NCBI GenBank assembly: GCA_963825605.1
Contig: CAWGTY010000014.1
Span: 117,924 to 181,923 of the forward strand
DNA length: 64,000 nt
Source of the DNA: an uncultured Acidimicrobiaceae bacterium
Lineage (GTDB): Bacteria > Actinomycetota > Acidimicrobiia > Acidimicrobiales > Ilumatobacteraceae
Reading direction: 5' to 3'
Every line of letters starts with the position of its first letter. Within the stretch, counting starts at the first letter, position 1. This document shows, in pieces, positions 12,397-63,775 of this stretch. The notes below the pieces were generated by a model that saw nothing but the letters and a program-made list of their open reading frames with translations, was not told where the DNA came from and did not search any database. The position numbers were made by a program, and so were the translations under genes.

Positions 12397-12573
12397 CAAC
12401 GGTTCGCCTCGAGCCAGGGAAAGCGACTGCCAGAACCGCTGGCTCTGCGGCGCTCGGTGTCGACGGCGGCGACGGACTTCGCAGGCCGCACAGATCCGGC
12501 AGGGAGCAGACCACCGGCCGGTCAGGGAAGAGACGCACCGCTACGGCCCTGGGCCACCTGCAAGGATCGGGAG

Positions 12574-41088: not shown

Positions 41089-41128
41089 GGTTCTGTCCTT
41101 CTGAGCGATGAGTCGTTGGGATGGAGGA

Positions 41129-42025: not shown

Positions 42026-42360
42026 GAGGTTGCTGCTCCTGGTGAGTGGTGATGGGGTTGGTTCTGAATTTCGTTGGGACGTTCGATGGCCGCTTCCGGA
42101 GAAGCGGGGGTGAGCGAGATCAGCGTGATGCCGAGGTCCCGAAGCTTCTGGAGCAGTCCGTGGAGCGCGGCTTGGTCGACGACGAATCCGCGGATGACGG
42201 AGGTCCCGTCGTTCTCGCAGGTGAGGGTCAGTCCGTCGAACCACGTCGACCACCGTGATCCGAGGTGTCCGCCGACACGGATCTCATAGTGCTGGGTGGC
42301 CGCCTGTTCAGCGATGGAGTGCCGGGTGGCCGGCTCGTTCGTGTGGTCGTCTGTGCTCAC
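42022..42360 (-). CDS. small conserved protein typical of MalT-type regulator cassettes
   Basis: YEIRVGGHLGSRWSTWFDGL…VDQAALHGLLQKLRDLGITLISL; ATGA overlap with the ABC ATPase. Confidence 0.8.
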   Translation of the reverse strand: MSTDDHTNEPATRHSIAEQAATQHYEIRVGGHLGSRWSTWFDGLTLTCENDGTSVIRGFVVDQAALHGLLQKLRDLGITLISLTPASPEAAIERPNEIQNQPHHHSPGAATS

Positions 42361-42392
42361 GAAGACGAACGTACGGACCGACCTGGTGAGCG

Positions 42393-42426
42393 CACATCAC
42401 ATGATGTGGTGATCTTCGTGGTGATC
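42393..42426. promoter_or_regulatory. palindrome plus direct repeats, candidate MalT-type regulator binding site
   Basis: CACATCA-ca-TGATGTG (42393-42408) overlapping GTGGTGATC at 42406 and 42418. Confidence 0.5.
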
Positions 42427-42449
42427 AGTGTGAGGCAGATCGGGCCGGA

Positions 42450-42475
42450 TCAGAGACCCAGTTCAGAGACCCAGT
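42450..42475. repeat. exact 13-bp tandem duplication of the MalT gene 3' end
   Basis: TCAGAGACCCAGT at 42450-42462 and 42463-42475, duplicating the last codons and stop. Confidence 0.85.
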
Positions 42476-45129: not shown

Positions 45130-45226
45130 TGCTCGGCAGACCTCGGCCGTGAGGCACAGACCGGCGCGGGCCATTCGGTCGAGGGTTGCTGCGATGGACG
45201 CGATCGCACCGCCGGGTTCGTCGTCA

Positions 45227-45820
45227 TCATCGGGCACTCGTGCGACGAGGCGCGGCGCGGACGTGCGCCCGTTCGCCGGGTCGGCTGAGGATGCTGAGGA
45301 TCTCGACGGGTTGATTCCCGGCGGCACCGAACCAATGGGGGACCGCGGTGTCGAACTCGGCCACCTCACCGGACTTCATCGTGATGTCGTGGCCCCCGAG
45401 CAGTAGTCGCAGCTCGCCGCTGAGCACGTACAACCATTCGTACCCGTCGTGCGACTTGAGTCGGGGACGCTTGTGCTCGGGTGGGATCAACACCTTCCAC
45501 GCGTGCATCCCGCTCGGCTGCTCGGTGAGAGGCACGACCGTGCGTGTTCCGCGCCGGTGGGGCCGGGGCCGGATTCGCGGATCGCCGACCTCGGGGGCAC
45601 CGACGAGTTCGTCGAGCGCAACGGAATACGCCTGAGCAATCGGGAGCAACAGTTCGAGGCTCGGCTTGCGTTGCCCCGTCTCGAGACGCGACAACGTGCT
45701 CTTCGAAATTCCCGTCGTCTTCGACAACTCGATCAGCGTCAACCCGCGCTCGGTCCTCAACTTGCGCAGACGGCCGGCGACCCCGGCGAGCACACTCGTC
45801 GCTTCCGGGGCGGCCGTCAT
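45227..45820 (-). CDS. XRE-family HTH + cupin transcriptional regulator
   Basis: LRKLRTERGLTL…ISKSTLSRLETGQRKPSLELL; HDGYEWLYVLSG…FDTAVPHWFG. Confidence 0.92.
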   Translation of the reverse strand: MTAAPEATSVLAGVAGRLRKLRTERGLTLIELSKTTGISKSTLSRLETGQRKPSLELLLPIAQAYSVALDELVGAPEVGDPRIRPRPHRRGTRTVVPLTEQPSGMHAWKVLIPPEHKRPRLKSHDGYEWLYVLSGELRLLLGGHDITMKSGEVAEFDTAVPHWFGAAGNQPVEILSILSRPGERAHVRAAPRRTSAR

Positions 45821-45839
45821 CGAGCAATTCAACATCGGA

Positions 45840-45855
45840 TTCCCGGAACCGGCAA
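45840..45855. promoter_or_regulatory. imperfect palindrome between the divergent XRE and MFS genes
   Basis: TTCCCGG-AA-CCGGCAA. Confidence 0.4.
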
Positions 45856-45909
45856 CGAAAGTTGTGGCCGCCACCGGAATCAGCGCACCGTCGCTCCAGG
45901 AGGTTCGCG

Positions 45910-47214
45910 ATGAGCAACACAGAGAGCCGGCAACCACAAGGCCCGGCCGCCATCGGAGAGACGCGGTTCGCCGCCTTCGGCGCCCGGAACTTCCGGCGCT
46001 ACTTCATCGGCCAGATCATCTCGAGCGTCGGCTCATGGACACAGGCGCTCGCGGTCACATGGCTCGTCCTCGATCTCACCGACCGCAGCGATCAACTCGG
46101 GATCGTCATGGCCCTGCAGTTCCTCCCGATGCTGCTCCTCGGCGCTCCCGCCGGCGTCCTCGCCGACAAGGTCGACAACCGACGCCTTCTCATCGCGACC
46201 TCGGCATCGTCGGGTCTCGTCGCGCTCGGCTTCGGGGCGATGGTCGCAACCGGCCACACCAGCATGTGGGCGATCTACGCGCTCACGACGATGCTCGGCC
46301 TGCTGCTCGCCATCGAACGCCCAGCGATGCAGGCAATCCTGTTCCAGCTCGTCGGCCCCGACCTGCTCCCCAGCGCGGTGGCCGCCAACAGCACCATCAA
46401 TTCGATGTCCCGCTTGGTCGGACCGGCGCTCGCCGGAGCACTCATCGCCGGATTCGGCGTCGGAGCGTGCTTCGCCGTCAACGCCGCCTCATACCTGGTC
46501 GTGATCGGCGCCCTGATGCGCCTCCGACGAAGCGAGCTGATCGACCGTCCGTTCCTCGGCCGAACCAAGGGGAAGCTGCGCGAAGGTTTCGCGTATGTTC
46601 GAAGCCAGCCAGACGTGCGCCGACCCCTGCTCGTCATGGCCGTCGTCGGCACCATGGCCTTGAACTTCCAGACGACGTTCCCGTCCATGGTCCGATTCGA
46701 ATTCGAACTCGGCGCCGGATCCATCGGCACGGCGATGAGCGTCAGCGCGATCGGCTCGATCCTCGGCGGCATCTACATCGCCGGCGTGAAACCGGACTCA
46801 CGTCGCACGCTCGGCATCGTGCTCGCAGCATTCGCCACAACGTGCATCACCCTTGCGCTCGCTCCCGGATACTGGGCCTTCGTCGCCTTGAGCATCCCAT
46901 TGGGGTTCGCGTCCGCATCGTTCCAATCGGTCGACACGGTCGTGCTCCAACAGGCCACCGAACCGTCGATGCAAGGACGGGTCATGGCGCTGCAACAGAT
47001 GGCCTGGTTCGGCAGCACCCCGATCGGTGCGCTCCTGATGGGATGGATCATCCAGATCTCATCCCCACGGGTGCCCTTCGCTGTCGGCGGCCTCGCAGCG
47101 CTCGCCTGCGCCACAGCAGTGCTGATGGTGCGACACACCGATGCGACCAACGAAATCGGTGCGGACGTTCCGTGTCCGGATGGAGTTGCAGTCGTTGCCC
47201 CAGCGGTGGCTTGA
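45910..47214 (+). CDS. MFS transporter (MFS_3/macrolide-efflux-like)
   Basis: RNFRRYFIGQIIS, GVLADKVDNRRL, RLVGPALAG, MQGRVMAL; GGAGG RBS before ATG 45910. Confidence 0.9.
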   Translation: MSNTESRQPQGPAAIGETRFAAFGARNFRRYFIGQIISSVGSWTQALAVTWLVLDLTDRSDQLGIVMALQFLPMLLLGAPAGVLADKVDNRRLLIATSASSGLVALGFGAMVATGHTSMWAIYALTTMLGLLLAIERPAMQAILFQLVGPDLLPSAVAANSTINSMSRLVGPALAGALIAGFGVGACFAVNAASYLVVIGALMRLRRSELIDRPFLGRTKGKLREGFAYVRSQPDVRRPLLVMAVVGTMALNFQTTFPSMVRFEFELGAGSIGTAMSVSAIGSILGGIYIAGVKPDSRRTLGIVLAAFATTCITLALAPGYWAFVALSIPLGFASASFQSVDTVVLQQATEPSMQGRVMALQQMAWFGSTPIGALLMGWIIQISSPRVPFAVGGLAALACATAVLMVRHTDATNEIGADVPCPDGVAVVAPAVA

Positions 47215-47399
47215 CGACGCCGCAGGCTTCTGCGCGCTTCACGTCGTGGAAGCTTCAGCGCACCCGGACCAGGTGTGGTGAACGATCGCATGAGCAGTCG
47301 ATGGAAACATCCTCGTTCCAGGCTGAGAACACGATCGATGGTTCATTCGCCAGATTGCGCCTCTGGCCAGCTGTTTCGCTCGTCAGGGCGTCACCGGTC

Positions 47400-47422
47400 C
47401 GTGCCTCACGCGCTGAGGCACG
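47400..47422. repeat. perfect 9-bp inverted repeat/hairpin 57 nt left of the att core
   Basis: CGTGCCTCA-cgcgc-TGAGGCACG; contains the AGGCACG motif also seen at 57543/57554. Confidence 0.6.
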
Positions 47423-47479
47423 CCGGCCCCGGAGGAGAGGTTCACCGCAAGCGGCCAGCTCATCTACCAGGGGTTTTTC

Positions 47480-47524
47480 GAGCGGATGAGGGGAATCGAA
47501 CCCCCGTATTCAGCTTGGGAAGCT
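47480..47524 (-). mobile_element. att-type duplicate of the 3' half of tRNA-Gly(CCC), copy 1 (not a full tRNA)
   Basis: Minus strand AGC-TTCCCAA-GCTGAATAC-GGGGG-TTCGATT-CCCCT-CATCCGC-TC: anticodon loop, T-arm and acceptor 3' strand only; D-arm and 5' acceptor strand absent. Confidence 0.88.
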
Positions 47525-47594
47525 TCTGAGGTCTGGACGCCACACGGGGTTTGACCTGGTAGTAAGCGATTCCGACGTGCGCCGTTCGATCGTC

Positions 47595-47613
47595 CGTGCA
47601 ACCTACGTGCAAC
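47595..47613 (+). repeat. 11-bp-period direct repeat, candidate integrase arm-type site (left arm)
   Basis: CGTGCAAC at 47595 and 47606. Confidence 0.65.
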
Positions 47614-47672
47614 TACGAAGACTGGGCCCGGGAGGGCGACAGCGGTGATCGCCAGCAAGCGGGTGCGGAGTC

Positions 47673-48833
47673 TCAGCTCGCCGAGCGGTCGGTGACGAGT
47701 ACGTCGAGGATCTCGGCGGCTCGCCATCGGAGTTGGCCGCGGGGGCCGTCGCTCGCTTCGGTCAGGATTCCGAGATCGGCGAGGAGGCGGAGTGCCGCGA
47801 GTGCCGAGGGGCGGGTGATGTCGAGACGACGTTCGACCACTCGTGAGGTGAGCACCGGCTGTTCGAATGCGAGCTCGACGAGCTGGTTGGCCGATCCGCG
47901 TGTCGTGTCTTGCACCATCGACCGGTACCGCTCGCGGAGGTCTGTGAGCTGTTCGGCGCGTCCGACGGCGTCGGTTGCTTGTGTCGTGACCGCGTCGAAG
48001 AACAGCGACAACCAACCGTCGAGATCGCCGCGTTCACGCACACCCTGGAGCGCCTCGTAGTAGAGGTCGCGGCGCTGCTCGAAGTAAGGAGAGATGTAGA
48101 GCAGTGGTGCGGCAAGCCGGTCGCGCACGACGAGGAAGAACACGACGAGGAGTCGCCCGAGTCGCCCGTTGCCGTCCAGGAACGGGTGGATGGTCTCGAA
48201 CTGGTAGTGGAGCATGGCTGCTTGGACGAGCTTCGGCATCGGGGGTTCATCGTGGACGAATCGTTCGAGGTCGTCGACGAGGTCGCCGAGCGCGTCCGGG
48301 GGTGGTGGGACGAACCGTGCGGTCTCGATCGTCGCGCCGGGCGCCCCGATCCAGTTCTGCGTGGATCGGAACTCGCCGGGTTGGCGCTCTCGACCGCGGA
48401 CGCCGGCGAGGATGATCGCGTGCATCTCTCGGATCAGTCGTGCGCTCAGCGGCAGGGTCGCGAGTCGCTCGAGACCGGTTTCGATGGCGGCGACGTAGTT
48501 GATGACCTCCTCGACGTCGGGGCCGGCGGGGCGATCGTCGGCCTCGGCGTCGTACACGTCGGTGAGTGATGCCTGTGTGCCCTCGATGCGGGTGGATGCC
48601 ACTGCCTCTCGGCGGAGGTACGGGCCAACCAGCAACTGTGGGTGCGGGAGCAGTCTCCCGGCGCCGGCGAGCCGGCCGAGTGCGGCCTCCGCGTTCGCCA
48701 TAGCAGAGACATTGGCCGCCGAGATCTGGACCGTGCGTGGGATCGGGTTCGGCAAGTAGGCCACGTACCCGTGTACGCCCGGTGTTCTGCGTGCCTCGCC
48801 GAAGGGCGTCGAAGCGTAGGCCGCTGGGTCCAT
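47673..48833 (-). CDS. Fic family protein (class II, internal inhibitory helix) with C-terminal HTH-like region
   Basis: HPFLDGNGRLGR active-site motif; N-terminal STRIEG inhibitory motif; PGEFRSTQNWIG. Confidence 0.92.
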   Translation of the reverse strand: MDPAAYASTPFGEARRTPGVHGYVAYLPNPIPRTVQISAANVSAMANAEAALGRLAGAGRLLPHPQLLVGPYLRREAVASTRIEGTQASLTDVYDAEADDRPAGPDVEEVINYVAAIETGLERLATLPLSARLIREMHAIILAGVRGRERQPGEFRSTQNWIGAPGATIETARFVPPPPDALGDLVDDLERFVHDEPPMPKLVQAAMLHYQFETIHPFLDGNGRLGRLLVVFFLVVRDRLAAPLLYISPYFEQRRDLYYEALQGVRERGDLDGWLSLFFDAVTTQATDAVGRAEQLTDLRERYRSMVQDTTRGSANQLVELAFEQPVLTSRVVERRLDITRPSALAALRLLADLGILTEASDGPRGQLRWRAAEILDVLVTDRSAS

Positions 48834-48939
48834 TCGGCCAGGCTAGCCGTCTCTAAAGAAACTGACCGTTCGCTTTCGAGTCGTGTCGGGACTGGCAAGG
48901 AACCCTGCGGGTCGCTTCGGTCACCGAACTCGGCGCGGC

Positions 48940-49768
48940 CGTGAGTGTCGGGGTTGCCAGCCGCGCTCGTCGAGGAGCTTCTGGAGGTTGCGCTTGGGCT
49001 TGTGGGTGGTCCGCGCGACCTCGACGATCGCCTCGAAGCGTTCAGGTACCTCCGCCGCCGCGGCGAGTCGTTCGACGCGTGCCATCAGCTCGACCGCGGC
49101 GGCGTACGCCTGGTTGTACTTCGCGTCGGCGAGATCGAACGCCAGCAGGGTCGCGTCCGGCGACTCGACGACGTCGGGTGTGACTCGGTCGATCCGGAGG
49201 AGCAGTTCGCCGGTCGATCGGTTCTCGACGACGAACGGTGGTTGTCGTCGGCGGTCGCAACTCCTGGGAGATCGAGCGATCCCATGACGAGGGAGTCCGA
49301 GAACGCCTCGACGCGCTCGGTCCCCACCTGCGAGTCCAGCTGCCCGATCACGGCGCCGGTGTCCGGATCGATCAGCGCGAACTGGCCGTCGCCCTGGCGC
49401 AGGAGCTCCGTTCCGTCGTCGGAGGCGACGAAGTTGTCGGTGCCACCCGGGAGCGTCAGGCACACCCGGAGACGGGATCGATGTCACAGCCGGCGAGCTG
49501 GGTTCGTCCGCCGGTCAGCGGCCGGTACAGCGACCACGAGCTCGCCACCCGGGCCTCGCCCAGCGGGTGGGCGATCACGAAGCGGTCCCCGGCGAGGGCA
49601 GTGATCGGTTACTGGCCGACGACGGGCTGGCCGACGAACGCCCCCCCCGGTCGCCAGATCGAACAAGACGACGTGCGGCTCCGAGCCGGCGAGATCGACG
49701 GCGACGAAGGCACCGACGTGCTCGCTAGCGCTGATCGTGCCGACGCCGACCGCCCGGTCCTCAGTCAC
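48940..49768 (-). pseudogene. mosaic of relics: beta-propeller-like fragments and a SWIM-protein-like C-terminal fragment
   Basis: Short frames with FALIDPDTGAVIGQL and VVLFDLATG; LADAKYNQAYAAAVELM…RTTHKPKRNLQKLLD; no single long ORF. Confidence 0.35.
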
Positions 49769-52700
49769 ACGCGCGGCGTTGAGGCTCGTCGCCGGGGATG
49801 AGACGTTCCCATTCCTCCGATGTGAGCTCGCGGCTGGCGACCGCGCAGGCGCGCTCGACCCAGCGATCCGGGTCGAGCGGTACCCCGATCAGCTTGCCGG
49901 CCGTGCCCATCCAAAGCACGTCCGTCGACGCGTCGAACCAGCCCGGCTCGCCGACGAAGGTCCCGGTTCCGCTCCAGACGACACCCATCGGTTCGGCACG
50001 TTCGACGTCGAGGAGGCGAACGGTGCCGTCGATGTAGGCGAGCGCCACCACCGAACCGTCGCCGCTGAACCCGAAGTTCACGACCCGTCCGGTCACGCCG
50101 AGGTCCGTCACCTCGCCGGTCGGCACGTCGACGAGCACGGTGCGCGCATCGTCGGAGCCCATCACGAGCGTCGACCCCGTCGGATCGAGCGCCATCTCGT
50201 ACGTGAGGGGCGCGCCGGTCTCGACGTCGCCGGTCAGCTCCCCGTTCGCGGCGTACGCCCGGAGCACCCCGTCACGATCCGACACGAGCACGCCGCCGTC
50301 GGGTGTCGGGTGGGCCGCGATCGCCTCAGTCGTCTCGACCGTGAGGACGACCTCGGGATCGCCGCGCTGGAGGCGCGCGAGCGTGACCTCCTGTTGGCCG
50401 TCGGGCCGTTCACCCACCATCGCGAGCAGGTCGCCGTACCTGGTCGCCATCAGCGTGCGCCCGTCCAGCGGACCTCGCACGCCGGGGACGCTGCCCAGGT
50501 ACAGCCGGTCGGCCAGGCGCCCGTCCTCCCACCGCGCCGCCACGAACTCGCGCGACATCGCCCACACCCCGTCGGGCTCGGGGTAGGCGACGAGGGCCTG
50601 GAACCGGGAACCATCGGCATCGGTCAGCTCCGGCGACGAACGTGCGCCGGTCGCGAGCTCCACGACCTCGAGGGTCTGGCCGGGGATGTCGAGTGCCGCC
50701 GCCCGGCCGTCCGTGAACGCGACGTGGGCACCCGGATCGACCGTCCACGACCGCTCGACGAGCGCGCTGCCAGCGGGGTCGTAGACGACGATCACGTCCG
50801 GGAGGACGACCACGATCAGCCCGTCGGGCCGGATGAACGCATCCTCGTAGTCCTGGAGCGGCAGCAGGTCGGTGACCGCACCGGTCGCGGGATCGACCCG
50901 GAGCACGCCGCTCGGTGAGACGGCCATGATCGTCCCGTCCGGGCTCACCGATACGTCCGAGAACTCCACACCTGGTTGGGACGTGAGGTCGTGCACGATC
51001 GCACCGGTCGCAGGATCGATCACCATGATGCGACCGCCGAGGAAGCCGGCGACCAGGTTCCCGGCTCCCTCGTCGAACGCGAGCGCCGCTGCTCCGTCGG
51101 GTGTGTCGAGCTGGACGAGCACGTCGGCGGTGTCGGCGTCGGCGATCACGAGTCGTCCGTCGCCCTCGGGCGCCTCCGGCCGCGCAAACCCGACGGCGAA
51201 CAGCGACTCGTCGGCGTTCATCGTGAACGAGATCTGGAGGTCGTCGGTGATCGGTTCGCCGATGATCTCGCCGGTCGTGGCATCCCGCACCGTGACCGAG
51301 TCGGGCTGATCGAAGTCGAGCAGCCCGGTCACCACGAGGATGTTCCCGTCGGCGGTGCTCCAGAGCGGGAAGGTCGGCTCGTCGACCGGGAGCTCACGCT
51401 CGAAGTTCGGGCCGGTCCACAGGCGCGACAAGTCGACGGCGACGGCGACGGCGATGCCGCTGGGGCCGTTGCGCGCGCCCAACGCACACGGTGCCGGCGC
51501 GGGGATCTCGTCGAGCACCTCACCCGACACCGGATCCCGGCGCACGATCATCCTGTCGACGCTGACGACCTCGGACCCTTCGCGGAGGAAGAAGCTCGGC
51601 CCGCAGTCGCTGACGAGACGGTCGCGGGTGAGCACCCGGTTCGAGATCGTCGCTCCGCCGAGGGCATCGAGGATCGCCGTGTCGGTCGCACGACCCGGCG
51701 AACGACGGTGGGCCTCGAGGGCGAGCAGGAGCGCCAAGGGTGGGTCGTCCGCCTTGACGGCCGCGGCACGACTGATCAGCGTGGCGAGGTCCGCTTCGTC
51801 GGCGGCCACGGTCGCGGCCTCGGCAGCGGCCTCGGCCCGCTGCGTCTGGAGGTCGGCCCGGTTGCGCTCCTCGACGGCGATGTCGGCCTGGGTGACGGCG
51901 TCCGCCGCCGCGGCTTCGGCTCGGACGGTCTCCTCCTCGGCGCGCTGTCGCTGGACGACGGCGAACGTACCGGCCGCGAGTGCGAGCACCAGTGCGGCGC
52001 CGATACCTACGACGAGTCGACGGAGGCGCCTGATCCGGCGTCGTTCCTCGACCCGCTCCATCTCCGATCGGGCGAACGACTCCTCGAGGAAGGCCCGCTC
52101 GTGCGTGGTCAGACGCACCGGGGCTCCGTCGATCCACCCGTCGTACCTCGCCAGCCGGTTGCCGGCGAGCAGGTCGCCGGGATCGCGGCCACGCTCCGAC
52201 CAATCGGCCGCTGCGGCGGCGAGCTGGCGCTGGGCCACGACGTCCGCCCGCCCAGCGTCGACCCAGCCCGACAATCGGCTCCATTCGGAGAGCAGCGACT
52301 CGTGCGCGACCTCGACGGTCGGCGCGCGGGTGACGGGGTCGCGGTCGAAGGTGAGCAGTCGGTGACGGGCGAACTCGTCGATCACGTGGGTCGAGTCGGC
52401 GCCGGCCGCCGCGGCGACCTCGCGGACGAGCGCTCGGCGACGGGTGGCGGCCGATCCGTGGCCGAGCGTGACGAGGCGCAGGAAGACCTCGCGCGCCGCG
52501 TCTCGCTGCTCGTTCGTCAGCGACTCGTAGATCTCCTCGGCTCGTCGTGCCAACGCGCCCCCGACGCCGCCGACGTCGCGATAGCTCTCGACCGTGATCG
52601 TCGACCCGGTGCGCTGCTCGAACAGCTCAGTCAGCGCGTACTGCATGAGCGGCAGCCCGCCGGGCTGGCCCGACATGTCGGCGGAGATCGCCGTGACGAC

Positions 52701-54893
52701 GCCTGGTTCGAAGGCCACGCCGACCGACGCGGCCGGCGTGGTGATGGCACGCTCGAGCTCCTGCGGGTTCATCGGCGTGATGACCTCGGTGCCGATCCGG
52801 ACGAGCTCGCCGAACCCGGGATGAGCGAGTGGCTGATCGAAGAAGTCGGCCCGCAACGTCATGACGAACTTGACGGCGGAGTGCCGTGCGGTCGTGGCGT
52901 CGACCACGGCGGACATGAACGCTGCGGCCACGTCTCGTGGCACCTGGGAGAAGAGCTCCTCGAGCTGGTCGATGATGACGACGACGTGGGATGTGTCGTC
53001 GGGTGCGACGAGCTCGGCCGTTGACGCGATGCCGTCGGTCCGCATCCGCTGGGCCAGGTCGGTGGGCGGGTCGATGGCGACGGAACGCATCGCGTCAGCG
53101 AGCTCCTCGAAGGGCTCGCGCCCAGGAGTCATCGACACGACGAACCACTCGTCGGAGGCTGGAATCGCACGTAGCCGGAGGGCGGGGATCAGCCCGGCGC
53201 GGACCACGCTGGACTTGCCGGACCCGCTCGGGCCGACGACCACGACGAACCGTCCCTTCGGGCCGGCGTAGCCGAGCCGCGCGAGCAGTCGCTCGACGAG
53301 CCGCTCGCGACCGAAGAAGCGCTGCGCATCTTCCTCGTGGAACGCGCGGAGTCCCCGGTACGGGTTCGGCGACTCGTCGGCCTTGACCGTCACGACCTCG
53401 CCCCAGGCGGCGCTCAATTCCCTCGCGAACGTCGCCGCGTCGGGGCAGCGATCGGTCGAGTCGGCGCGTCGGTTGCGCTCGATCAGCTCACCGGCCGCGC
53501 TTCGGGGATCGGCACCGCCGACGAGGAGGTCCGCCAGCTCCGCAAGAGCGGTGATGTCGGAGGCCACGGTCGGTTCGACCGTCGATTCGCGGTCGTGGCG
53601 GTCGTCGCCGTCGCGAGCGGACAGACCGAAGTCGGCGAGATAGGCGTTGCCGTCGCCGTCGAGCAGGACGTTGCGAGGCGTGATGTCGCCGTGCGCGATC
53701 CCGAGCCGATGGGTCGCGGTGAGCGCGGCCCCCACCTGTTCGATGATGCGGGCGGCGGTGTGCACGTCGAGCGGACCGCCGCGCAACGTCTCGTCGAGGC
53801 TCCCGCGCCCGAACCTTCGCATCACCAGGAACGCGCGGCCGGGTTCTCGCCAATAGTCGTAGACGGGGACGATGGCCGGATGCTCCAGGTGCGCGACGAG
53901 GCGAGCTTCGGCTTCGAATCGTCGGATGAAGTCAGCGTCGTCGGCGAGCTCCGGGCGCACCACCTTGATCGCCACCTCACGTCCGACGGAGGGTTGGAAC
54001 GCGCGATAGACGTCGCCCGTGGCGCCGACGCCGATCTTGTCGCGCAGTTCGTACCCGCGGACGGACAGGCCGTCGTTCGTGCTGCCGGTCGCCGGCGCCC
54101 CGGTCGGGAGCCGCAGGCGTGGGTCGTCGTCCAGGACCTGTCGTTCGAGCTCGACGAGTTCGGCGGACGGGTCGAGACCGAGCTCCTCGCCGAGGTACGT
54201 GCGTCGGTCGCCGAAGGCGCGCAGAGCATCCGCCTGGCGGCCGGACCGGTGGAGGGCAAGCATCAGGAGTGCCGTGAACCGTTCGTGTGACGGGTGGAGC
54301 CGAACGAGGCCGTCCAGTTCCGCGATCAGGTCACGGTGCCGCCCCGTGCGGAGATCGGCGTCGATTCGATCGCCAGCCGCAGCCAGTCGCCGTTCCTCGA
54401 GCCGTGCGATCTCGGCTGCCGCGAACTGTTCGTAGGTGAACTCCTGGAGTGCGCGTCCGCGCCAGAGGGCGAGGGCCTCGCTCAGGACGAGCGACGCCGC
54501 ACCGGGGTCGGCGTCGAGCAGCGCACGTCCTTCGCGGGCGAGTGCGTCGAATCGGTGCGAGTCGACGCGTTCGGGGTCGACCACGAGCACGTAGCCCGGC
54601 GGCCGCGTGAGGAGGACCGAGCCGTCACTGCGCTTCTCGCGACCGGGTTCGAGCACCGACCTGAGTCGCGAGATCTGGACCCAGAGGGCGTTCTGACGGT
54701 CAGGGCCCGCATCGTTCCCCCACAGCTCGTCGATGATGCGGTCGGTCGAGACCACGCGATTCGCTTCGATCAGCAACAGCGCCAGCAGCGCACCCTGGCG
54801 AGCGCCGATCCCCAGCGAGCGGCCGCCGCGACGGACGTCGAGCGGCCCGAGCAGCCGATACTCGATCGCGTCCTTCCCGATGTCCTCACTCAC
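49761..54893 (-). CDS. giant multidomain regulator: wHTH-BTAD, Ser/Thr (pseudo)kinase, nSTAND1 NTPase, TM helix, WD40-like propeller
   Basis: YRLLGPL…ALALWRG (SARP/BTAD); GxGxxG, VAIK, HGD, DFG (kinase); NPYRGLRAF…FFGRE, GPSGSGKSS, IDQLEELF, LPLMQYAL, VAHESLL (nSTAND1); hydrophobic VVGIGAALVLALAAGTFAVV; C-terminal W…AC…LT…EW. Start GTG 54893. Confidence 0.9.
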   Translation of the reverse strand: MSEDIGKDAIEYRLLGPLDVRRGGRSLGIGARQGALLALLLIEANRVVSTDRIIDELWGNDAGPDRQNALWVQISRLRSVLEPGREKRSDGSVLLTRPPGYVLVVDPERVDSHRFDALAREGRALLDADPGAASLVLSEALALWRGRALQEFTYEQFAAAEIARLEERRLAAAGDRIDADLRTGRHRDLIAELDGLVRLHPSHERFTALLMLALHRSGRQADALRAFGDRRTYLGEELGLDPSAELVELERQVLDDDPRLRLPTGAPATGSTNDGLSVRGYELRDKIGVGATGDVYRAFQPSVGREVAIKVVRPELADDADFIRRFEAEARLVAHLEHPAIVPVYDYWREPGRAFLVMRRFGRGSLDETLRGGPLDVHTAARIIEQVGAALTATHRLGIAHGDITPRNVLLDGDGNAYLADFGLSARDGDDRHDRESTVEPTVASDITALAELADLLVGGADPRSAAGELIERNRRADSTDRCPDAATFARELSAAWGEVVTVKADESPNPYRGLRAFHEEDAQRFFGRERLVERLLARLGYAGPKGRFVVVVGPSGSGKSSVVRAGLIPALRLRAIPASDEWFVVSMTPGREPFEELADAMRSVAIDPPTDLAQRMRTDGIASTAELVAPDDTSHVVVIIDQLEELFSQVPRDVAAAFMSAVVDATTARHSAVKFVMTLRADFFDQPLAHPGFGELVRIGTEVITPMNPQELERAITTPAASVGVAFEPGVVTAISADMSGQPGGLPLMQYALTELFEQRTGSTITVESYRDVGGVGGALARRAEEIYESLTNEQRDAAREVFLRLVTLGHGSAATRRRALVREVAAAAGADSTHVIDEFARHRLLTFDRDPVTRAPTVEVAHESLLSEWSRLSGWVDAGRADVVAQRQLAAAAADWSERGRDPGDLLAGNRLARYDGWIDGAPVRLTTHERAFLEESFARSEMERVEERRRIRRLRRLVVGIGAALVLALAAGTFAVVQRQRAEEETVRAEAAAADAVTQADIAVEERNRADLQTQRAEAAAEAATVAADEADLATLISRAAAVKADDPPLALLLALEAHRRSPGRATDTAILDALGGATISNRVLTRDRLVSDCGPSFFLREGSEVVSVDRMIVRRDPVSGEVLDEIPAPAPCALGARNGPSGIAVAVAVDLSRLWTGPNFERELPVDEPTFPLWSTADGNILVVTGLLDFDQPDSVTVRDATTGEIIGEPITDDLQISFTMNADESLFAVGFARPEAPEGDGRLVIADADTADVLVQLDTPDGAAALAFDEGAGNLVAGFLGGRIMVIDPATGAIVHDLTSQPGVEFSDVSVSPDGTIMAVSPSGVLRVDPATGAVTDLLPLQDYEDAFIRPDGLIVVVLPDVIVVYDPAGSALVERSWTVDPGAHVAFTDGRAAALDIPGQTLEVVELATGARSSPELTDADGSRFQALVAYPEPDGVWAMSREFVAARWEDGRLADRLYLGSVPGVRGPLDGRTLMATRYGDLLAMVGERPDGQQEVTLARLQRGDPEVVLTVETTEAIAAHPTPDGGVLVSDRDGVLRAYAANGELTGDVETGAPLTYEMALDPTGSTLVMGSDDARTVLVDVPTGEVTDLGVTGRVVNFGFSGDGSVVALAYIDGTVRLLDVERAEPMGVVWSGTGTFVGEPGWFDASTDVLWMGTAGKLIGVPLDPDRWVERACAVASRELTSEEWERLIPGDEPQRRACD

Positions 54894-54945
54894 GTCGACC
54901 CCCGAGTCGCCTTCATCGTGCCACGGTCCCGTCCGGTTGGCCGGC

Positions 54946-56166
54946 TCAGCCGGACGGGACGAAGCCCGGCGTGTCCACGTCGATCGCCACGAGCGCCGGC
55001 CCGACACCGGTGCTGAACGCCTCGATGTTCGCGAGGTTGGTCGCGTACAGCGTCAGCTCGGTGCCGCCGATCCCGAACGCGATGCTCGCCGGCAGGTCGA
55101 GCCCAGCAGCGGCCCCCTCCGCCAGCGTCTCGATGCTGCCGTCCAGGCCGACCCGCCGGATGGCGCTCCCGCCGACGTCGGCGACGTAGACCCGTCCGTC
55201 GGCGCCGAGTGCGATGCCGTCGGGGATGATGCCGCCGTCGACGATGGTGCTGACCTCGCCCGGGCTGCCGTCGTCCAGCACCGGGATCGCGACGAGTGAC
55301 ATGCGTTCGGTCACGGCGGCGTACACCGTGCCGTCGCCGAAGGCGACGCCGTTGACCCCGGCCGGGGTGCCGAGCCCGAAGGCGCCGGTCCCACCGAGGG
55401 CCTCGTCCTCGAGCCACTTCTCGACGGTGCCGTCGGGGCCGATTCGCCAGATCGCACCCAGCGGAGCAGCCTCGTCGCCGTTCGACCAGAAGTCGGTCAC
55501 GTACAGGTTGCCCAGGTCGTCGAAGGTCAAGGCGTTGGGAATGGCGATGTCCTCGGTCCCGGCGAGCCGGGTGGCTGCTCCGGTTCGGCAGTCGAACCTC
55601 CACACACCGGTCGCCGCGCCGGCGTGAACGGCGCCATAGACGTTGCCGGCGTCGTCGACGGCGAGGCCGAGGAGGCCGAAGATCCCGGCCCACTCGAAGC
55701 CAGGGACTACGCCGAAGTCCTCGTACTCGCTCGCTCCGGGCGCGAGCTTGAGGAGGCGACCCTGATCGACGAGGGTGACGAAGACGTTGCCTGATCGGTC
55801 GACGGCCACGCCCTCGGCGAACTCTCCGGCGGCGGGGTCGAGCGCGGCGACGATGCCGGCCGGCTGGGTGGCTTCGTTCGGCGTCGGTTCCGGACACGCC
55901 GGATCCGGCTCCGTCGTCGGCGGAGCCGTGGTCGGTGGAGCCGTCGTCGGTGCGCTCGTCGATTCGACGGCGGGCTCGGTGCCGGCCGTCGTCGTGGCGA
56001 CGGTGGTCGAGGCTGCGGCGACGTCGTCGGTCGCATCCGTGTCGGCGGTGATCGCCGTCGTGACGGCGTCCGCGGTTGCCGGCTCGTCGTCGCCGCCACA
56101 GGCGGCAGTCGCCACGATGAGCGCGACAGCGGCGGCTGCGCCCGTGAGCCCGTGAGATCGGTTCAT
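54946..56166 (-). CDS. SMP-30/gluconolactonase/LRE family lipoprotein
   Basis: Lipobox TAAC, Thr/Pro linker, six-blade motifs AEGVAVD, PNALTFD, VNGVAF, PDGIAL, PASIAF; start ATG 56166. Confidence 0.85.
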   Translation of the reverse strand: MNRSHGLTGAAAAVALIVATAACGGDDEPATADAVTTAITADTDATDDVAAASTTVATTTAGTEPAVESTSAPTTAPPTTAPPTTEPDPACPEPTPNEATQPAGIVAALDPAAGEFAEGVAVDRSGNVFVTLVDQGRLLKLAPGASEYEDFGVVPGFEWAGIFGLLGLAVDDAGNVYGAVHAGAATGVWRFDCRTGAATRLAGTEDIAIPNALTFDDLGNLYVTDFWSNGDEAAPLGAIWRIGPDGTVEKWLEDEALGGTGAFGLGTPAGVNGVAFGDGTVYAAVTERMSLVAIPVLDDGSPGEVSTIVDGGIIPDGIALGADGRVYVADVGGSAIRRVGLDGSIETLAEGAAAGLDLPASIAFGIGGTELTLYATNLANIEAFSTGVGPALVAIDVDTPGFVPSG

Positions 56167-56227
56167 GGTCTCGTCCTTCCCTCCGGTCCCGAACCGTTCG
56201 GAACACGAGGGTGATCGTCCCCGAGTC

Positions 56228-56245
56228 CACTTTCTGCCCACTTGC
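56228..56245. promoter_or_regulatory. 11-bp-period direct repeat, candidate SARP/BTAD operator of the SMP-30/STAND operon
   Basis: CACTTtctgccCACTTgc, ~60 nt upstream of ATG 56166; 16/18 identical to 12378-12395. Confidence 0.55.
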
Positions 56246-56289
56246 GTGCATCTGCCCAGCTCAGCCGGGTTGTGGACGACGCGACGGCG

Positions 56290-57108
56290 GGGATTACGCC
56301 GACGAGATCGTCCGCTCCGGCTTCCCTGCTATCCGGCAGTTCGACGGTCGGTTGTTGAGGGCGCAGTTGGACGGATATCTCGATCGGATCGTCGAGCGCG
56401 ACTTCGAAGAGCTCGGACAGGTGGTGCGCAATGTGGGGGCGTTGCGACGGTGGCTGACGGCGTTCGGTGCGGCGACCTCGACCGTTGCGTCCTACGACGT
56501 GATCCGTGATGCAGCGTCGGCCGGTGAGGCGCAGAAACCGACCAAGCGACGACGATCCCGTACCGTTCCACGCTCGAACGCCTCTGGATGATCGACCAGG
56601 TGCCGGCGTGGTCGCCGACTCGGAACCGGTTGCGTCGGCTCGCGGGCGTCTCCGGTCCACCAACTCGCAGATCCGGCACCGGCGGTTCGGCTGCTCGGGC
56701 TCGAAGCCGATGCACTCGTCGGCGGGGCCGACGGTTCGGCGCGAATCCCGCGCGAAGGTTCGTTGTTCGGTTCGATGTCCGAATCGCTGGTCACGCAGTC
56801 AGTTCGCGTGTACGCCCAGGCGAACGAGGCACACGTGTCGCATCTGCGAACACGCGGCCCGTACGCTTTCCAGGTGTGGCGGCGAACGAGAGATCGACCT
56901 GATCGTCGAACGCGGCGACGGACGAGTCGTTGCGCTCGAGGTCAAGCTGTCGGCTGCGGTCGTCGACGCCGACGTTCGACACTTGCACTGGCTCGTAGAC
57001 CGACTCGGCGACGAACTCCTTGACGCAGTGGTCGTCACGACTGGACCAGAGTCCTACCGTCGCAGCGACGGCATCGCGGTCGTCCCGGCTGAGGTGATTG
57101 CGCCGTGA
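56290..57108 (+). pseudogene. AAA_14 + DUF4143 ATP-binding protein, 5'-truncated with multiple frameshifts
   Basis: SGFPAIR…YLDRIVERDF; LADPALA-like segment; ESLVTQSVRVYAQA; EIDLIVERGDGRVVALEVKL spread over three frames. Confidence 0.8.
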
Positions 57109-57187
57109 GGGCAGCACAGCCGGATCAACTGGTCGTTGGTGTCGGAGTGCCCCGCGCCCGGGTGAATCAGGATGAACGCAGTTCCGA

Positions 57188-57206
57188 CGTGCAACATCCG
57201 TGCAAC
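57188..57206 (+). repeat. 11-bp-period direct repeat, candidate integrase arm-type site (right arm)
   Basis: CGTGCAAC at 57188 and 57199; same motif and period as 47595-47613. Confidence 0.65.
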
Positions 57207-57377
57207 AACGGGCTCGTTAAACGACCGCTCTGGCATGCGGCGCCTCAATTGTCTGACGCCGTGACCTGGTCGAACGTCGGGAGCGACATCTCGCTCAGCG
57301 CTGAACATCAGCCTCATGACCTGCCCTGCAGCTGAGAACGATCTGCCCCGGTAAGGTCGCTGCTACCAGGGCCAACA

Positions 57378-57422
57378 GAGCGGATGACGGGAATCGAACC
57401 CGCGTTCTCAGCTTGGGAAGCT
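57378..57422 (-). mobile_element. att-type duplicate of the 3' half of tRNA-Gly(CCC), copy 2 (not a full tRNA)
   Basis: Minus strand AGC-TTCCCAA-GCTGAGAAC-GCGGG-TTCGATT-CCCGT-CATCCGC-TC; 5' half absent. Confidence 0.88.
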
Positions 57423-57542
57423 GCCCGACGGGTAGGCGCGTCGGTGCAGCGTGAGGCACATCATGCCTGCTCAGCGGCGGTTTCGGAGTTGGCGACGAGT
57501 ACACACAGGTCCGCACCATTGCGCCCTGTTCCGCGCTGCTCT

Positions 57543-57560
57543 AGGCACGAACCAGGCACG
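57543..57560 (+). repeat. 11-bp-period direct repeat, candidate arm-type site of the adjacent element
   Basis: AGGCACG at 57543 and 57554, ~120 nt right of att copy 2. Confidence 0.5.
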
Positions 57561-57575
57561 GCGGCCCCACCGTGC

Positions 57576-58052
57576 CTACCGAGGCGGTGGGGGCGGGATC
57601 GGCGCGATGGCCGATTGGGCGCGGGCGATCACGGTGTCGGTGAGGTTGCTGAACTGGTCGAGCTCGGCGTCGGTCGGCTCGATCAGGTCGGAGGGGTAGT
57701 TGGTCTTGTGGCGGAGGTCGCGGAGCTCGTCGAGCTGCGCCCACTCGGTGCGGTTGACGAGTTGTACCCCGTACGCGTAGTCGACCACGGCGACGTGGGC
57801 GCCGGGTCGGTTGGCGAACCGGAGTCCGCGGGCCGCCGCGACGGCGCTGATCGCGAGCCGTGCAGCTTCGTGGAGGTTCGAGATGACCGGGAGCCGGAGG
57901 CCGTCGTCTCGGCACAGCTGCGCGGTCTTTCGGAACTCGCGCGCCGACGCGAGCGTGCGTGTGCCCTCGCGCCGTCGGTGGGCACCGCTGCCGGGAACCG
58001 TGTGCATCGCGTCGCGGATCAGCGCGTCCACGTCGGTCGGGCGGCCACTCAC
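57576..58052 (-). CDS. HEPN-domain protein (putative toxin)
   Basis: LHEAARLAISA, PGAHVAVVDY, LDELRDLRHKTNY; GTGA overlap with the upstream MNT gene. Confidence 0.7.
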   Translation of the reverse strand: MSGRPTDVDALIRDAMHTVPGSGAHRRREGTRTLASAREFRKTAQLCRDDGLRLPVISNLHEAARLAISAVAAARGLRFANRPGAHVAVVDYAYGVQLVNRTEWAQLDELRDLRHKTNYPSDLIEPTDAELDQFSNLTDTVIARAQSAIAPIPPPPPR

Positions 58053-58612
58053 GAGTCGTCGCCTCGTGTGATGACCGGCACCGAGCCTTCCCTCAAGTTG
58101 GTGAGCTGGTCGTGATCTGGCGGAAGGACCATTTGGTCGACGGTGAGGCCTGTGGCGGCTTCGATCGCGGCGCGGTGCTCGGCGAGGGTGAACCGGGTGT
58201 GGGTCGAGCTGACGACGACGAGATCGAGATCGTTGGGTGGTGGGCCGGGCTCGCCGTGGAATCGTGCCGCCCACGATCCGTGGATGAAGACCTCGTCGAC
58301 GCCGGCGACGTCGACGTACTCGTCGCGCACGATGTGGGGCGCCCCGGCCGCATACGCAACGAGCTGGCGAAGCGCGTCGGTGTACGGAGCATCGGCGGGC
58401 CGGACGACCTTGGCACGCCCGACCTCTTCCATCGTGACGATCCCGGCCTCGGCGAGGCGCGCCAGCTCGCGAGCCACGGTCGGCTGGGAGAGCCCGAGCC
58501 GACGTGCGAGCTCGCTGCCCGACGCCGGCCGACCGAAGAACACCTCGGCGAGCAGTTGCGCCTGCGTCTCCGACCGGAAGATCGGAAGCAGCTCTGGCGC
58601 AGCAGTCGGCAT
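58049..58612 (-). CDS. winged-HTH + minimal nucleotidyltransferase (MNT), putative antitoxin
   Basis: LLPIFRSETQAQLL…SELARRLGLSQPTVAREL (wHTH); FIHGSWAAR…PNDLDLVVV (GS…DxD). Confidence 0.85.
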   Translation of the reverse strand: MPTAAPELLPIFRSETQAQLLAEVFFGRPASGSELARRLGLSQPTVARELARLAEAGIVTMEEVGRAKVVRPADAPYTDALRQLVAYAAGAPHIVRDEYVDVAGVDEVFIHGSWAARFHGEPGPPPNDLDLVVVSSTHTRFTLAEHRAAIEAATGLTVDQMVLPPDHDQLTNLREGSVPVITRGDDS

Positions 58613-58620
58613 ACCTGGAG

Positions 58621-58662
58621 TATATGCACATTTCGAGTGATATTGCTAGGAATGCGCATGTA
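58621..58662. promoter_or_regulatory. AT-rich imperfect inverted repeat upstream of MNT-HEPN (autoregulatory operator candidate)
   Basis: TATATGCACATT-N18-AATGCGCATGTA (10/12 complementary), 8 nt upstream of ATG 58612. Confidence 0.5.
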
Positions 58663-58906
58663 TCACCGGATCGCGGAGTTACGCACTTCCCGGCGTACGT
58701 CAGGAAACCGAACGGCCTCTCGTTCTCACTGCCCCACACAGTTGCACCAATGGTGTGAGCGGCGTTCGCGCTCGGAGGATCTGAGCTTGGCAGGTGCCTC
58801 GGCGAGGGTTCGGGGAGGGTTTCGTGTCTGGGGGTGGCCTCTGGACACGCGCTGGGCACGGCGGACGGGCGAGTTTGGGGGATGGATTCTCGTCATGGTC
58901 ACCGGC

Positions 58907-59131
58907 ATGGCACGAGACCGGAACACCTCGCCACCGAGCAGCGATCCGACGTGCCGCGTGATCGTCGATGTGACACGGCTCGCCGACGAGCTCGGCGTGA
59001 ACGTGAGCTTCGTGCGTCGTCTCGTCTGGGAGCGACGCATCCCGTACTTCAAGATCGGCAAGCTCGTCCGTTTCGATCTCGCCGAGGTCCACGACTGGCT
59101 CGACCAAAGCCGTGTCGAGGCTCTGCGCTGA
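58907..59131 (+). CDS. excisionase-family (HTH_17) DNA-binding protein
   Basis: DVTRLADELGVNVSFVRRLVWERRIPYFKIGKLVRFDLAEVHDWL; alternative start GTG 58958. Confidence 0.8.
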   Translation: MARDRNTSPPSSDPTCRVIVDVTRLADELGVNVSFVRRLVWERRIPYFKIGKLVRFDLAEVHDWLDQSRVEALR

Positions 59132-59485
59132 CTCGCGAGGCAGCAGCGCGGCGCGTACAACTCACGAGGCCGAAGGCAGCGCACTTATCAACGCCACGGG
59201 CGCGCACTTCGCCGGTTGTCGGGCGCGGTTCCGGAGTGCTCCGGGCGCGATACGAGCGGGTGGGCTGCTGGAGAGCGAGGCGCGATACGTGCCGTTCAAG
59301 AGCGGTTTGGCCCCCTCCGGCGAGGCGCGATTATGCGCTACCTCAGCAGCAGTCGAAGCTCCAACAGCGCGCCGGCACTGCAGCGCGCCAGCGAACGACC
59401 TGGCCGGTGATTATCGCGTTGCGAGAGCTGGGGATAGGAGACTGCGGCTCGCTGCGAATTGCACTCGAGCGGACGAGGACCGCGA

Positions 59486-62026: not shown

Positions 62027-62040
62027 CGCGCCGAGTGTAG

Positions 62041-62060
62041 TTGCGTAGCGGATTGCGTAG
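62041..62060. promoter_or_regulatory. direct repeat in the LuxR/VOC divergent region
   Basis: TTGCGTAG at 62041 and 62053. Confidence 0.4.
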
Positions 62061-62147
62061 TTCCCCCGATGCGAGGCACCCGTCCGACGGCGCACGGTGG
62101 ACACGTCACCGTCCATTCCGGCCCGTCCCCGAACGAGGAGCGAATCC

Positions 62148-62666
62148 ATGTCACCTCTCAGGAGGACCCCTGTTGTCCACTTCGGTCATGTTGCGCTGAT
62201 CACGCCGGATCTCGACCGAGCTCGACAGTTCTACGAAGACGTGATCGGTCTACGAACGATGACGATTGACCATCCGCATGCCGCTCCATTCCGCCGCCTG
62301 GCCGCGCTCGCCGACGGAAGCGACGACGGGACCATGGCGCTCCTCCTGTTCGAAGTGCCCGGGTTCAACCCTGGGGTGGCCGACGACTTGATCGGTCGCC
62401 GCGGTCGCATCGATCACCTGGCGTTCGTCGCCGCAATCCGCAGCGAGTTCAACGCGATCGTCGCCCGACTTGTCGACGCCGGTGCATCGAGCGGTCGCGT
62501 CGACACGGTTGGGCCCACCCTGTCGGTGTTGTTCGTCGATCCCGACGGCGGACACCACAACATGCACACGCCAAATCTCGAATGGGTTCCCGAGGCCACC
62601 ACCGACGTCATCGACGCCGAGTTGACCGCACGTGTGCTGCGCACCCCAACGGTTCGAACACATTGA
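62148..62666 (+). CDS. VOC/glyoxalase family protein
   Basis: HFGHVALITPDLDRARQFYEDVIG, IDHLAF, LFVDPDG; GAGGAG RBS before ATG 62148. Confidence 0.85.
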   Translation: MSPLRRTPVVHFGHVALITPDLDRARQFYEDVIGLRTMTIDHPHAAPFRRLAALADGSDDGTMALLLFEVPGFNPGVADDLIGRRGRIDHLAFVAAIRSEFNAIVARLVDAGASSGRVDTVGPTLSVLFVDPDGGHHNMHTPNLEWVPEATTDVIDAELTARVLRTPTVRTH

Positions 62667-62777
62667 CATTCGAAGGCCATCACCTGACTCCCATCCGTAC
62701 CTCTGCCGAGAATCGCACGCCAACCGAAAAGCTCATCGCCCGAATCCCTCATCAACCACACCGACTGGAGTCATGCC

Positions 62778-63689: not shown

Positions 63690-63775
63690 GACGGAACGAA
63701 TCCCATCCATTCACATCAGTCCACCGCGACGGAATCCCCTGGAGGAGTCGGGTGACAAGCATCAAGGAGGTCATC

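Follow-up and report, generated by a model that had tools for sequence, protein, structure and literature searches.

The DNA analysed here is a 64,000-nt stretch (the window) of contig C14, positions 117924–181923, from the assembly of an uncultured Ilumatobacteraceae bacterium (5.24 Mb, 16 contigs, 68% G+C). It contains two direct repeats of 45 nt, fragment 1 at 47480–47524 and fragment 2 at 57378–57422, which reproduce the 3' half of a tRNA-Gly(CCC) gene and enclose a DNA segment that we call element B. The two copies are identical at 41 of 45 positions and their starts are 9898 nt apart. On the minus strand both read AGC-TTCCCAA-GCTGA..., beginning with the last 3 nt of the 5' strand of the anticodon stem and continuing across the loop TTCCCAA, which holds the anticodon CCC, and on through the variable loop and T arm into the 3' strand of the acceptor stem. 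A first-pass annotation of the window had described the repeats as tRNA-Gly(CCC) from the anticodon loop to the 3' end, and its coordinates are exact. The features of the locus, including the attachment-site (att) cores, the distal (P) and tRNA-proximal (P') arms and the open reading frames (ORFs), are as follows.

47292–47479, minus strand: module of about 190 nt on the 3' side of fragment 1, interpreted as the P' arm (tRNA-proximal) belonging to a third type of element, 'C-type'
47480–47524, minus strand: fragment 1, the attR core of element B, with a T stem of the native congener type
47525–47620, minus strand: distal (P) arm of B, with an arm-type pair GTTGCACGTAGGTTGCACG at 47595–47613 and a CTACCAGGTCA block
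47673–48833, minus strand: Fic/DOC cargo gene (Fic_N plus helix–turn–helix (HTH); Pfam)
48921–49604, no strand assigned: small region of uncertain coding, with ORFs at 49085–49465 (minus) and 48945–49604 (plus) and no family match
49761–55007, minus strand: gene for a 1748-aa cargo protein with SARP (Trans_reg_C and BTAD), kinase-like, nSTAND1 NTPase (Pfam, E = 1e-118) and WD40/beta-propeller parts
54946–56241, minus strand: beta-propeller gene (SGL/NHL; 431 aa) lying upstream of the STAND gene; not a recombinase
56270–57108, plus strand: DUF4143-type ATPase pseudogene, 5' truncated (no AAA domain) and with at least three frame changes
57188–57377, minus strand: tRNA-proximal (P') arm of B, long type, with blocks CCCTGGTAG, CGTTCTCAGC and CCAGGTCAC and the pair GTTGCACGGATGTTGCACG at 57188–57206
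57378–57422, minus strand: fragment 2, the attL core of element B and attR core of the neighbouring element A
57423–57560, minus strand: distal (P) arm of element A, with its own arm repeat GTGCCTGGTTCGTGCCTAGA at 57540–57559
57576–64000, no strand assigned: in-window part of element A, with a winged HTH (wHTH)-nucleotidyltransferase/HEPN pair, a LuxR-type STAND regulator (59486–62149), a glyoxalase-fold gene and a cupredoxin-like gene

Displaced halves of the tRNA-Gly(CCC) gene

ARAGORN reports no tRNA in the window; genome-wide it finds a single tRNA-Gly(CCC), at C14 c[207700–207771], which corresponds to 89777–89848 in window-equivalent coordinates (window numbering extended past 64000 along contig C14). 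The gene lies 32.3 kb to the right of fragment 2 and, like the fragments, on the minus strand, as had been predicted from the window. Downstream of the tRNA the contig shows the order tRNA, element A (32.4 kb), fragment 2, element B (9853 bp), fragment 1, which is again the order that the first-pass annotation had proposed. The islands are bounded, as in Islander-type arrays, by an intact tRNA gene (tDNA) and displaced fragments of the same tDNA in direct orientation.

The fragments match the intact gene at 43/45 and 39/45 positions, and the three copies have distinct T stems: GGGAG/CTCCT in the intact gene, GCGGG/CCCGT in fragment 2 and GGGGG/CCCCT in fragment 1. The four differences between the fragments include a compensatory T-stem swap, indicating that each copy is a real, foldable tRNA half and not the product of random decay. 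Four congeners (G017, G006, G037 and G049) have an intact tRNA-Gly(CCC) gene whose 3' half is identical to fragment 1, and fragment 2 is identical over 45/45 positions to locus L072 of another genus (blastn, 100%), with the same core recurring in loci L044–L049. Related genomes have these same 45-mer variants as tRNA-Gly(CCC) 3' halves, either native or carried by elements, and chance is therefore excluded as their source. An Rfam search of 46500–58500 at E ≤ 0.1 returned no RNA family; the tRNA halves themselves are too short to score.

Element A occupies C14 175346–207699. Its left part in the window, 57576–64000 (6.4 kb), continues to window-equivalent 89776. On the tRNA side it has a conserved hairpin and a GTGCCTAG repeat, followed by part of an IS110 transposase and then by an integrase fragment that covers only residues 20–257 of a 378-aa homologue (60% identity), with no catalytic domain detectable (PF00589). 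The homologue is the intact integrase adjoining tRNA-Gly(TCC) on contig C10. The GTGCCTGGTTCGTGCCTAGA motif family of A's distal arm is also found beside the intact tRNA, in A's P' arm, and in A-type elements of G037 and G049 that have an integrase. The initial description of an array with neither an intact tRNA nor an integrase therefore stands for the tRNA within the window and for the integrase within element B, but fails for element A, which keeps a truncated integrase gene beside the tRNA.

Element B and its relatives

The Fic protein of element B is a full-length match to the SoFic anti-phage model (PADLOC, E = 2.8e-110, profile positions 6–358 of 361). Homologues of the 1748-aa protein with 50–61% amino acid identity occur in same-arm elements of two other genera (L072 and L074). 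A spliced reading of the DUF4143 pseudogene scores E = 2.7e-17 (63 bits), and its position is the slot in which intact relatives carry the integrase. Two candidate genes in this part of B were discarded. ORF 54890–56251 is in the wrong frame and has an Arg-rich translation, the real gene being 54946–56241. Short minus-strand ORFs in 56100–57400 were considered as an integrase remnant, but tblastn with 20 integrases was empty there and six-frame translation gave the plus-strand DUF4143 pseudogene instead.

No tyrosine recombinase was detected in 47525–57377 by a six-frame scan with PF00589, by tblastn with 20 integrases of the same genome or by Pfam searches of all ORFs, in agreement with the first reading of the element as integrase-less. 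The ORFs of element B also lack integrase, excisionase, relaxase and coupling-protein domains. In a DNA search of 39 congener species B is absent as a unit from every one (0/39), the only matches being paralogous STAND-domain sequences of at most 71% identity, and in congeners G017, G006 and G018 the tRNA is followed by other sequence. Element B is accessory DNA, as the annotation had assumed, and not stable core sequence. A phage satellite of the PICI (phage-inducible chromosomal island) or P4-like kind was considered and rejected: B has no integrase, replication, packaging or interference domains, and the att patterns are absent from IMG/VR viral contigs.

Both ends of B carry an arm repeat of the form GTTGCACG-N3-GTTGCACG, and no further pair of this kind occurs in the genome (5.2 Mb), bearing out the claim that B has kept both arms. 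Single GTTGCAC heptamers are about as frequent as chance predicts (562 against about 569 expected). In the P arm, the pair GTTGCACGTAGGTTGCACG lies 75 nt upstream of CCCAAG in the core of fragment 1; the same spacing of 75–76 nt is found at 13 other loci and is constant wherever the P arm occurs. In the P' arm, the pair GTTGCACGGATGTTGCACG lies 171 nt downstream of the fragment 2 core and is matched in 11 other loci, at distances that fall into two classes. The P' pair is 108–109 nt from the core in all loci that bear an integrase or its remnant (L071, L073, L078, L079, L082 and L083) and 161–183 nt from it in every integrase-less locus, including element B. The long P' arms have a mean pairwise identity of 55%, yet contain four near-invariant blocks: CCCTGGTAG-AT, CGTTcTCAGCTTTT...AaGCTGA, CCAGgTCAc and the pair itself. 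From the position and conservation of the GTTGCACG repeats, we infer that they are the sites to which the integrase would bind.

Searches with this signature recovered a family of elements. Scanning public genomes for a tRNA 3' end followed after 160–190 nt by the pair yielded seven loci in metagenome-assembled genomes (MAGs) of Ilumatobacter and other Ilumatobacteraceae, and a metagenome scan for the P arm plus core added 13 further contigs. Each of the seven MAG loci has an intact tRNA-Gly(CCC) or a fragment of it, then a conserved arm of about 170 nt, then genes unrelated between loci (IS21, MscS, a Schlafen-like ATPase, LysR, P450, and a beta-lactamase-like gene with a SARP-kinase gene), and none of the seven has an integrase. 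The arm pair is present in 13/251 sampled genomes of the family, which belong to 10 of 61 genera; within the genus of the present bacterium it is confined to the present genome. Three att patterns searched against IMG/VR viral contigs gave no match.

Five elements are complete, with both arms, and all five have the long arm and no integrase. Besides element B (9.9 kb) they comprise an 11-kb element in G054 with a Schlafen-like ATPase and DUF2397/DUF2398 Wadjet-type genes; a 2-kb element in G056 (L062) that contains a single P450 gene and is itself part of a tandem array; a 1.5-kb element in L066 (Ga0105047_10067970), which lies between an intact tRNA and a different, integrase-bearing element; and a 10-kb element in G233, which has a homologue of B's STAND protein (50–61% amino acid identity) and no other gene in common with B. 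The L062 element (Ga0115572_10002035, 11692–13716; the same as L048) has full P' and P arms and two flanking tRNA-Gly fragments, and is the smallest single-gene cassette of the family. The neighbour of the L066 element has arm repeats of its own (GGTGCGAT, four copies), indicating that the tRNA-Gly(CCC) core is common to four or more families of arm repeats.

The integrase of the family was traced through short-arm relatives. In G107 (L073) the pair is followed by a frameshifted integrase gene and in G077 (L071) by the last 50 integrase codons only. The L073 protein retrieved full-length homologues of 366–372 aa with 60–80% identity, among which P0002, P0004 and P0016 are encoded convergently with tRNA-Gly(CCC) and have Integrase_N_phage, SAM-like and catalytic domains. 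This autonomous form has the layout integrase stop codon, 20–35 nt, reverse complement of GTTGCACGGATGTTGCACG, 109 nt, tRNA. At L083 an 83-aa HTH_17 (excisionase-type) gene lies just upstream of the integrase, and at L078 dcd is on the other side of the tRNA, as in the present genome. Element B has the core of the family (fragment 2 reads GAGAACGCGGG...CCCGT) and its pairs (GTTGCACG-N3-GxTGCACG, in the P arm at 75–76 nt and in the P' arm). The third family feature, a 371-aa integrase gene convergent with the tRNA and abutting the P' pair, is absent from B, and no cognate integrase is present elsewhere in the genome, the best matches being the C10 integrase (40%) and the truncated integrase of element A (48–51%).

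Probable accretion at the tRNA gene and mobility of element B

In tyrosine-integrase islands, an attP core that copies the 3' half of a tRNA recombines with the tRNA gene; the core of the incoming element completes the gene and the earlier 3' half is displaced downstream as a fragment. We consider it highly probable that the region arose as an array of site-specific integrative elements that accreted in tandem at the one tRNA-Gly(CCC) gene of an Ilumatobacter-like host, each incoming element having recombined its attP core with the tRNA gene and left the previous 3' half behind as a downstream fragment. The T stems suggest an order of events. Fragment 1 has the native stem, fragment 2 has the core of B, and the present tRNA 3' half, which is unlike both fragments and abuts the arm of element A, would be the core of A, implying that B arrived before A. 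The arm of a third element type follows fragment 1, so that this type probably preceded B. The proposed history is then that the third element type probably came first, B inserted into a native-type tRNA gene, and A followed.

The family of B is characterized by its core and by GTTGCACG-N3-GTTGCACG pairs in both arms, with a 371-aa tyrosine integrase and often an HTH_17 gene in autonomous members. Under this scheme element B, which has neither gene, could move only with a cognate integrase from elsewhere, acting in trans or brought in by an element that inserts alongside. As the genome has no such integrase and that of A is truncated, the whole array is most likely frozen now, and B is probably immobile in this genome at present. 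The first-pass annotation had proposed either a satellite mobilised in trans or a decayed element. The frameshifted pseudogene in the integrase slot, together with the missing cognate integrase, favours a stranded element, whereas the long P' arm that B has in common with an integrase-less lineage favours a non-autonomous life style.

Several findings weigh against this account. The integrase-less relatives have a long P' arm and the integrase-bearing ones a short arm, and this difference in arm type indicates that B is not a simple recent deletion derivative of the known integrase-bearing form. Contig C3, with three extra tRNA-Gly(CCC) fragments, has no place in the chromosome as assembled. 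Even the closest congeners are not syntenic with the region to the left of fragment 1, so that they mark neither the native tRNA flank nor the left end of the array.

Element B fits the definition of a non-autonomous element of the cis-mobilisable element (CIME) type within the array. CIMEs and tandem accretion have been described for ICESt1 and ICESt3 of Streptococcus thermophilus and are reviewed in PMC5704250. Like a CIME, B has attL and attR and lacks integration and transfer genes, and the three-step history given in that review fits. The two sites consist of the 45-nt core with an arm pair at each end, at spacings of 171 and 75 nt. For an origin by decay there are integrase-bearing relatives and a series from an intact (L078) through a frameshifted (L073) to a residual (L071) integrase gene, although B's long P' arm differs from their short one. 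In contrast to the streptococcal CIMEs, the host here belongs to the Acidimicrobiia, the target is tRNA-Gly(CCC), the integrase of the neighbouring element A is itself truncated and neither neighbour of B shows conjugation genes. B has no functional element beside it that could mobilise it in cis. Its arm type is also common to a whole set of integrase-less elements, so that B is not a one-off deletion product.

A more active role for B is possible, though we hold it to be the less probable outcome. B may belong to a self-standing lineage of non-autonomous cassettes, with a long P' arm, 1.5–11 kb in length and with any cargo, that is routinely moved by a short-arm helper integrase, either in trans or after accretion. 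This proposal overlaps the accretion account and differs from it only in the matter of active propagation. It is favoured by the lack of an integrase in 5/5 complete long-arm elements, by the four near-invariant blocks in P' arms that are otherwise 55% identical, which argues for selection on sites, by the occurrence of one P arm with differing downstream contexts and core variants (L061 against L065; L066 against L069), and by the patchy spread over 10/61 genera. On the other hand, long-arm elements and short-arm integrase elements do not occur together in any genome examined, and where a long-arm element is present the one or two arm pairs detected are all its own. There is also the pseudogene in B, with its several frameshifts, and neither an excision product nor an empty site was observed in assembled sequence. 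The conservation of the long-arm blocks despite 55% identity is what keeps a propagated lineage in consideration as a minority view; otherwise B would be taken for a plain fossil.

An extended form of this idea, which we advance just as tentatively, is a two-component system of gene capture at tRNA-Gly(CCC) in the Ilumatobacteraceae. Short-arm elements would supply the integrase and excisionase, long-arm cassettes would consist of docking sites and cargo and be shuffled between genera, and element B would be a cassette awaiting a helper. The cargo of such 1.5–11-kb cassettes may be as little as one P450 gene or as much as a Wadjet-like or SoFic/STAND defence set. If a helper integrase does propagate long-arm elements, the family would be an actinobacterial example of the cassette stacking at tRNA genes reported in other lineages, and would offer a small, well-defined integrase/att pair for testing.

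It is very unlikely that the long P' arm of about 170 nt is native host sequence behind tRNA-Gly(CCC) in some members of the family, such as a promoter or operator to which a host protein binds, and that the genes behind it mark a generic insertion hotspot. Five loci (L044, L046, L047, L049 and L066) do have the module directly behind an intact tRNA, followed by unrelated genes and no integrase. However, in five elements the pair is repeated at the far end, 75–76 nt upstream of another tRNA fragment, which makes these closed, att-bounded units; the module also follows tRNA fragments (L048, L062, L064 and L067); an identical pair abuts the stop codon of the dedicated integrase in L078, L082 and L083; and the pair is not found in other members of the same genus. 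The paired arms in particular largely refute this explanation.

Still more doubtful is that element B is autonomous by means of an unrecognised recombinase among its unannotated ORFs. The region 48921–49604, which has no family match, would be the place for one, but all large ORFs of B encode something else (Fic, STAND, beta-propeller or the DUF4143 pseudogene), the relatives whose att architecture is identical rely on a canonical tyrosine integrase, and the G233 element shares only the STAND gene with B, leaving no conserved candidate. Finally, that the repeats are debris of tRNA pseudogenes or of segmental duplication, unconnected with site-specific recombination, draws on the bare existence of partial tRNA copies and can be dismissed, because the fragments are direct with respect to the intact gene and start at the same nucleotide in the anticodon stem, their T-stem variants are compensatory, matched arm repeats flank them and the flanking sequence is not duplicated.

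Other known systems resemble the array in part. Actinomycete elements of the pSAM2/SLP1 type have an att identity segment that extends from the anticodon loop to the 3' end of the tRNA gene; they encode a tyrosine integrase and an excisionase-like HTH protein next to attP and are autonomous, with replication and transfer genes. Such replication and transfer genes were seen neither in element B nor in the short loci with the cognate integrase. Integron cassettes were rejected as a model, as the boundaries here are tRNA halves with direct arm repeats, and the array has no attC and no IntI-like gene. Islander arrays (PMC4383910) share with the present one an intact tDNA with direct, displaced 3' fragments, a crossover of the anticodon-loop class and several islands per tDNA. 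The Islander algorithm requires every tandem member to have an integrase of its own (PMC4383910), so that the present array, with no integrase in B and a fragment in A, would be missed or merged. In the Tycheposon islands of Prochlorococcus, serial integration at one tRNA likewise pushes older elements inward and leaves partial tRNAs, fragmented integrases and cargo behind (10.1101/2020.12.28.424599). Tycheposons are defined by their own integrase and replication modules, of which B has neither, and their lineage, host and arm sequences are unrelated.

As a feature, an integrase-less stack of islands at a tRNA gene is of a known kind, an ordinary scar of bacterial genomes. What is new is a delineated att/integrase family in the Acidimicrobiia whose integrase-less members form a distinct arm lineage; the family of element B is undescribed and usually lacks an integrase of its own. 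The locus shows accessory DNA, mostly defence-like and regulatory, piling up at one tRNA gene in a little-studied but environmentally abundant actinobacterial family. The displaced tRNA halves keep the T-stem variant of their donor and so provide a sequence-level record of insertion order. Island finders that require an integrase would miss or merge such elements, whereas the att signature, a core with GTTGCACG pairs 75–76 nt upstream and 109 or about 170 nt downstream, finds them directly.

Left flank, element A and other loci

The first-pass annotation had counted two fragments in the array, and this number is probably too low. Contig C3 (33.7 kb) carries three more tRNA-Gly(CCC) 3' fragments on its minus strand, at 19388–19432, 27677–27721 and, at the contig end, 33648–33675. 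Fragment 1 itself is followed by the module at 47292–47479, which contains GAAAAACCCCTGGTAGATGAGCTGGCCGC, then the hairpin CGTGCCTCA-N5-TGAGGCACG at 47400–47422 and then further conserved blocks. The same module of about 190 nt stands behind the three C3 fragments and was found nowhere else in the genome by nhmmer, alignment or a search for the hairpin. Congener G037 has a similar module behind its distal fragment, and P arms of this third type are also present in G048, G049 and G057. Since what lies behind fragment 1 is read as the arm of yet another type of element, the tandem array probably extends to the left of this fragment.

Contig C3 has transport, metabolic and STAND-regulator genes and no integrase, and part of it is 96.6% identical to a tRNA-Gly(CCC) island of the closest congener, G014. 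A join of C3 to contig C16 through a 15-nt overlap proved spurious: C16 starts inside a transfer-messenger RNA (tmRNA) gene that is cut at its 3' end. This gene (C16:1–376, L076; Rfam RF00023, E = 3e-26) has lost its 3' end at the contig start, and ARAGORN reports no tmRNA gene in the genome. The assembly break at C16 is probably due to an island at the tmRNA 3' end.

The part of the window from 7500 to 47479 is a mosaic in the closest species, and the other side of the tRNA (dcd and beyond) is syntenic. Comparisons of the left boundary with G014, G015, G048 and G049 gave scattered matches only. Within this region, the flanks of a 6.1-kb segment at 40758–46906, which encodes a MalT/LuxR STAND regulator and the larger part of an MFS transporter, are adjacent in congener G049 with 85% identity on both sides, indicating that the segment is an indel unrelated to the tRNA fragments.

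The rest of element A contains IS256- and IS3-family transposases, a XerC-like recombinase, MazF and Phd/PIN toxin–antitoxin genes, and GNAT, PadR and beta-lactamase-like genes. At its distal end, 57576–58612 encodes a wHTH-nucleotidyltransferase (PADLOC candidate PDC-M05A, E = 2.6e-37) with an adjacent weak HEPN ORF, likely a toxin–antitoxin or defence pair. The 312-aa XerC-like recombinase (C14:194162–195100) has near-copies of 66–96% amino acid identity at no fewer than three other sites in the genome (C7:425007, C5:28361 and C8:1622). It is probably part of a transposable unit present in several copies, not the integrase of the island.

An ordinary 8-kb island at tRNA-Gly(TCC) (C10:430825–438954, L077) has a 3' fragment at its distal end and encodes an intact integrase of 378 aa (C10:437687–438748). 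The arm repeat of this island, GTGCCTACAGCGTGCCTGGA, belongs to the motif family seen in the arms of element A, with the GTGCCT repeat motif in common, so that the C10 integrase might act on A in trans. About 12 tRNA genes with an integrase beside them (for example C6:197663, C7:410666 and C9:641848) have a motif containing CCTGGT/ACCAGG, often AAACCCCTGGTAGAT, directly behind the tRNA, which looks like a core-proximal site shared by the local integrase families.

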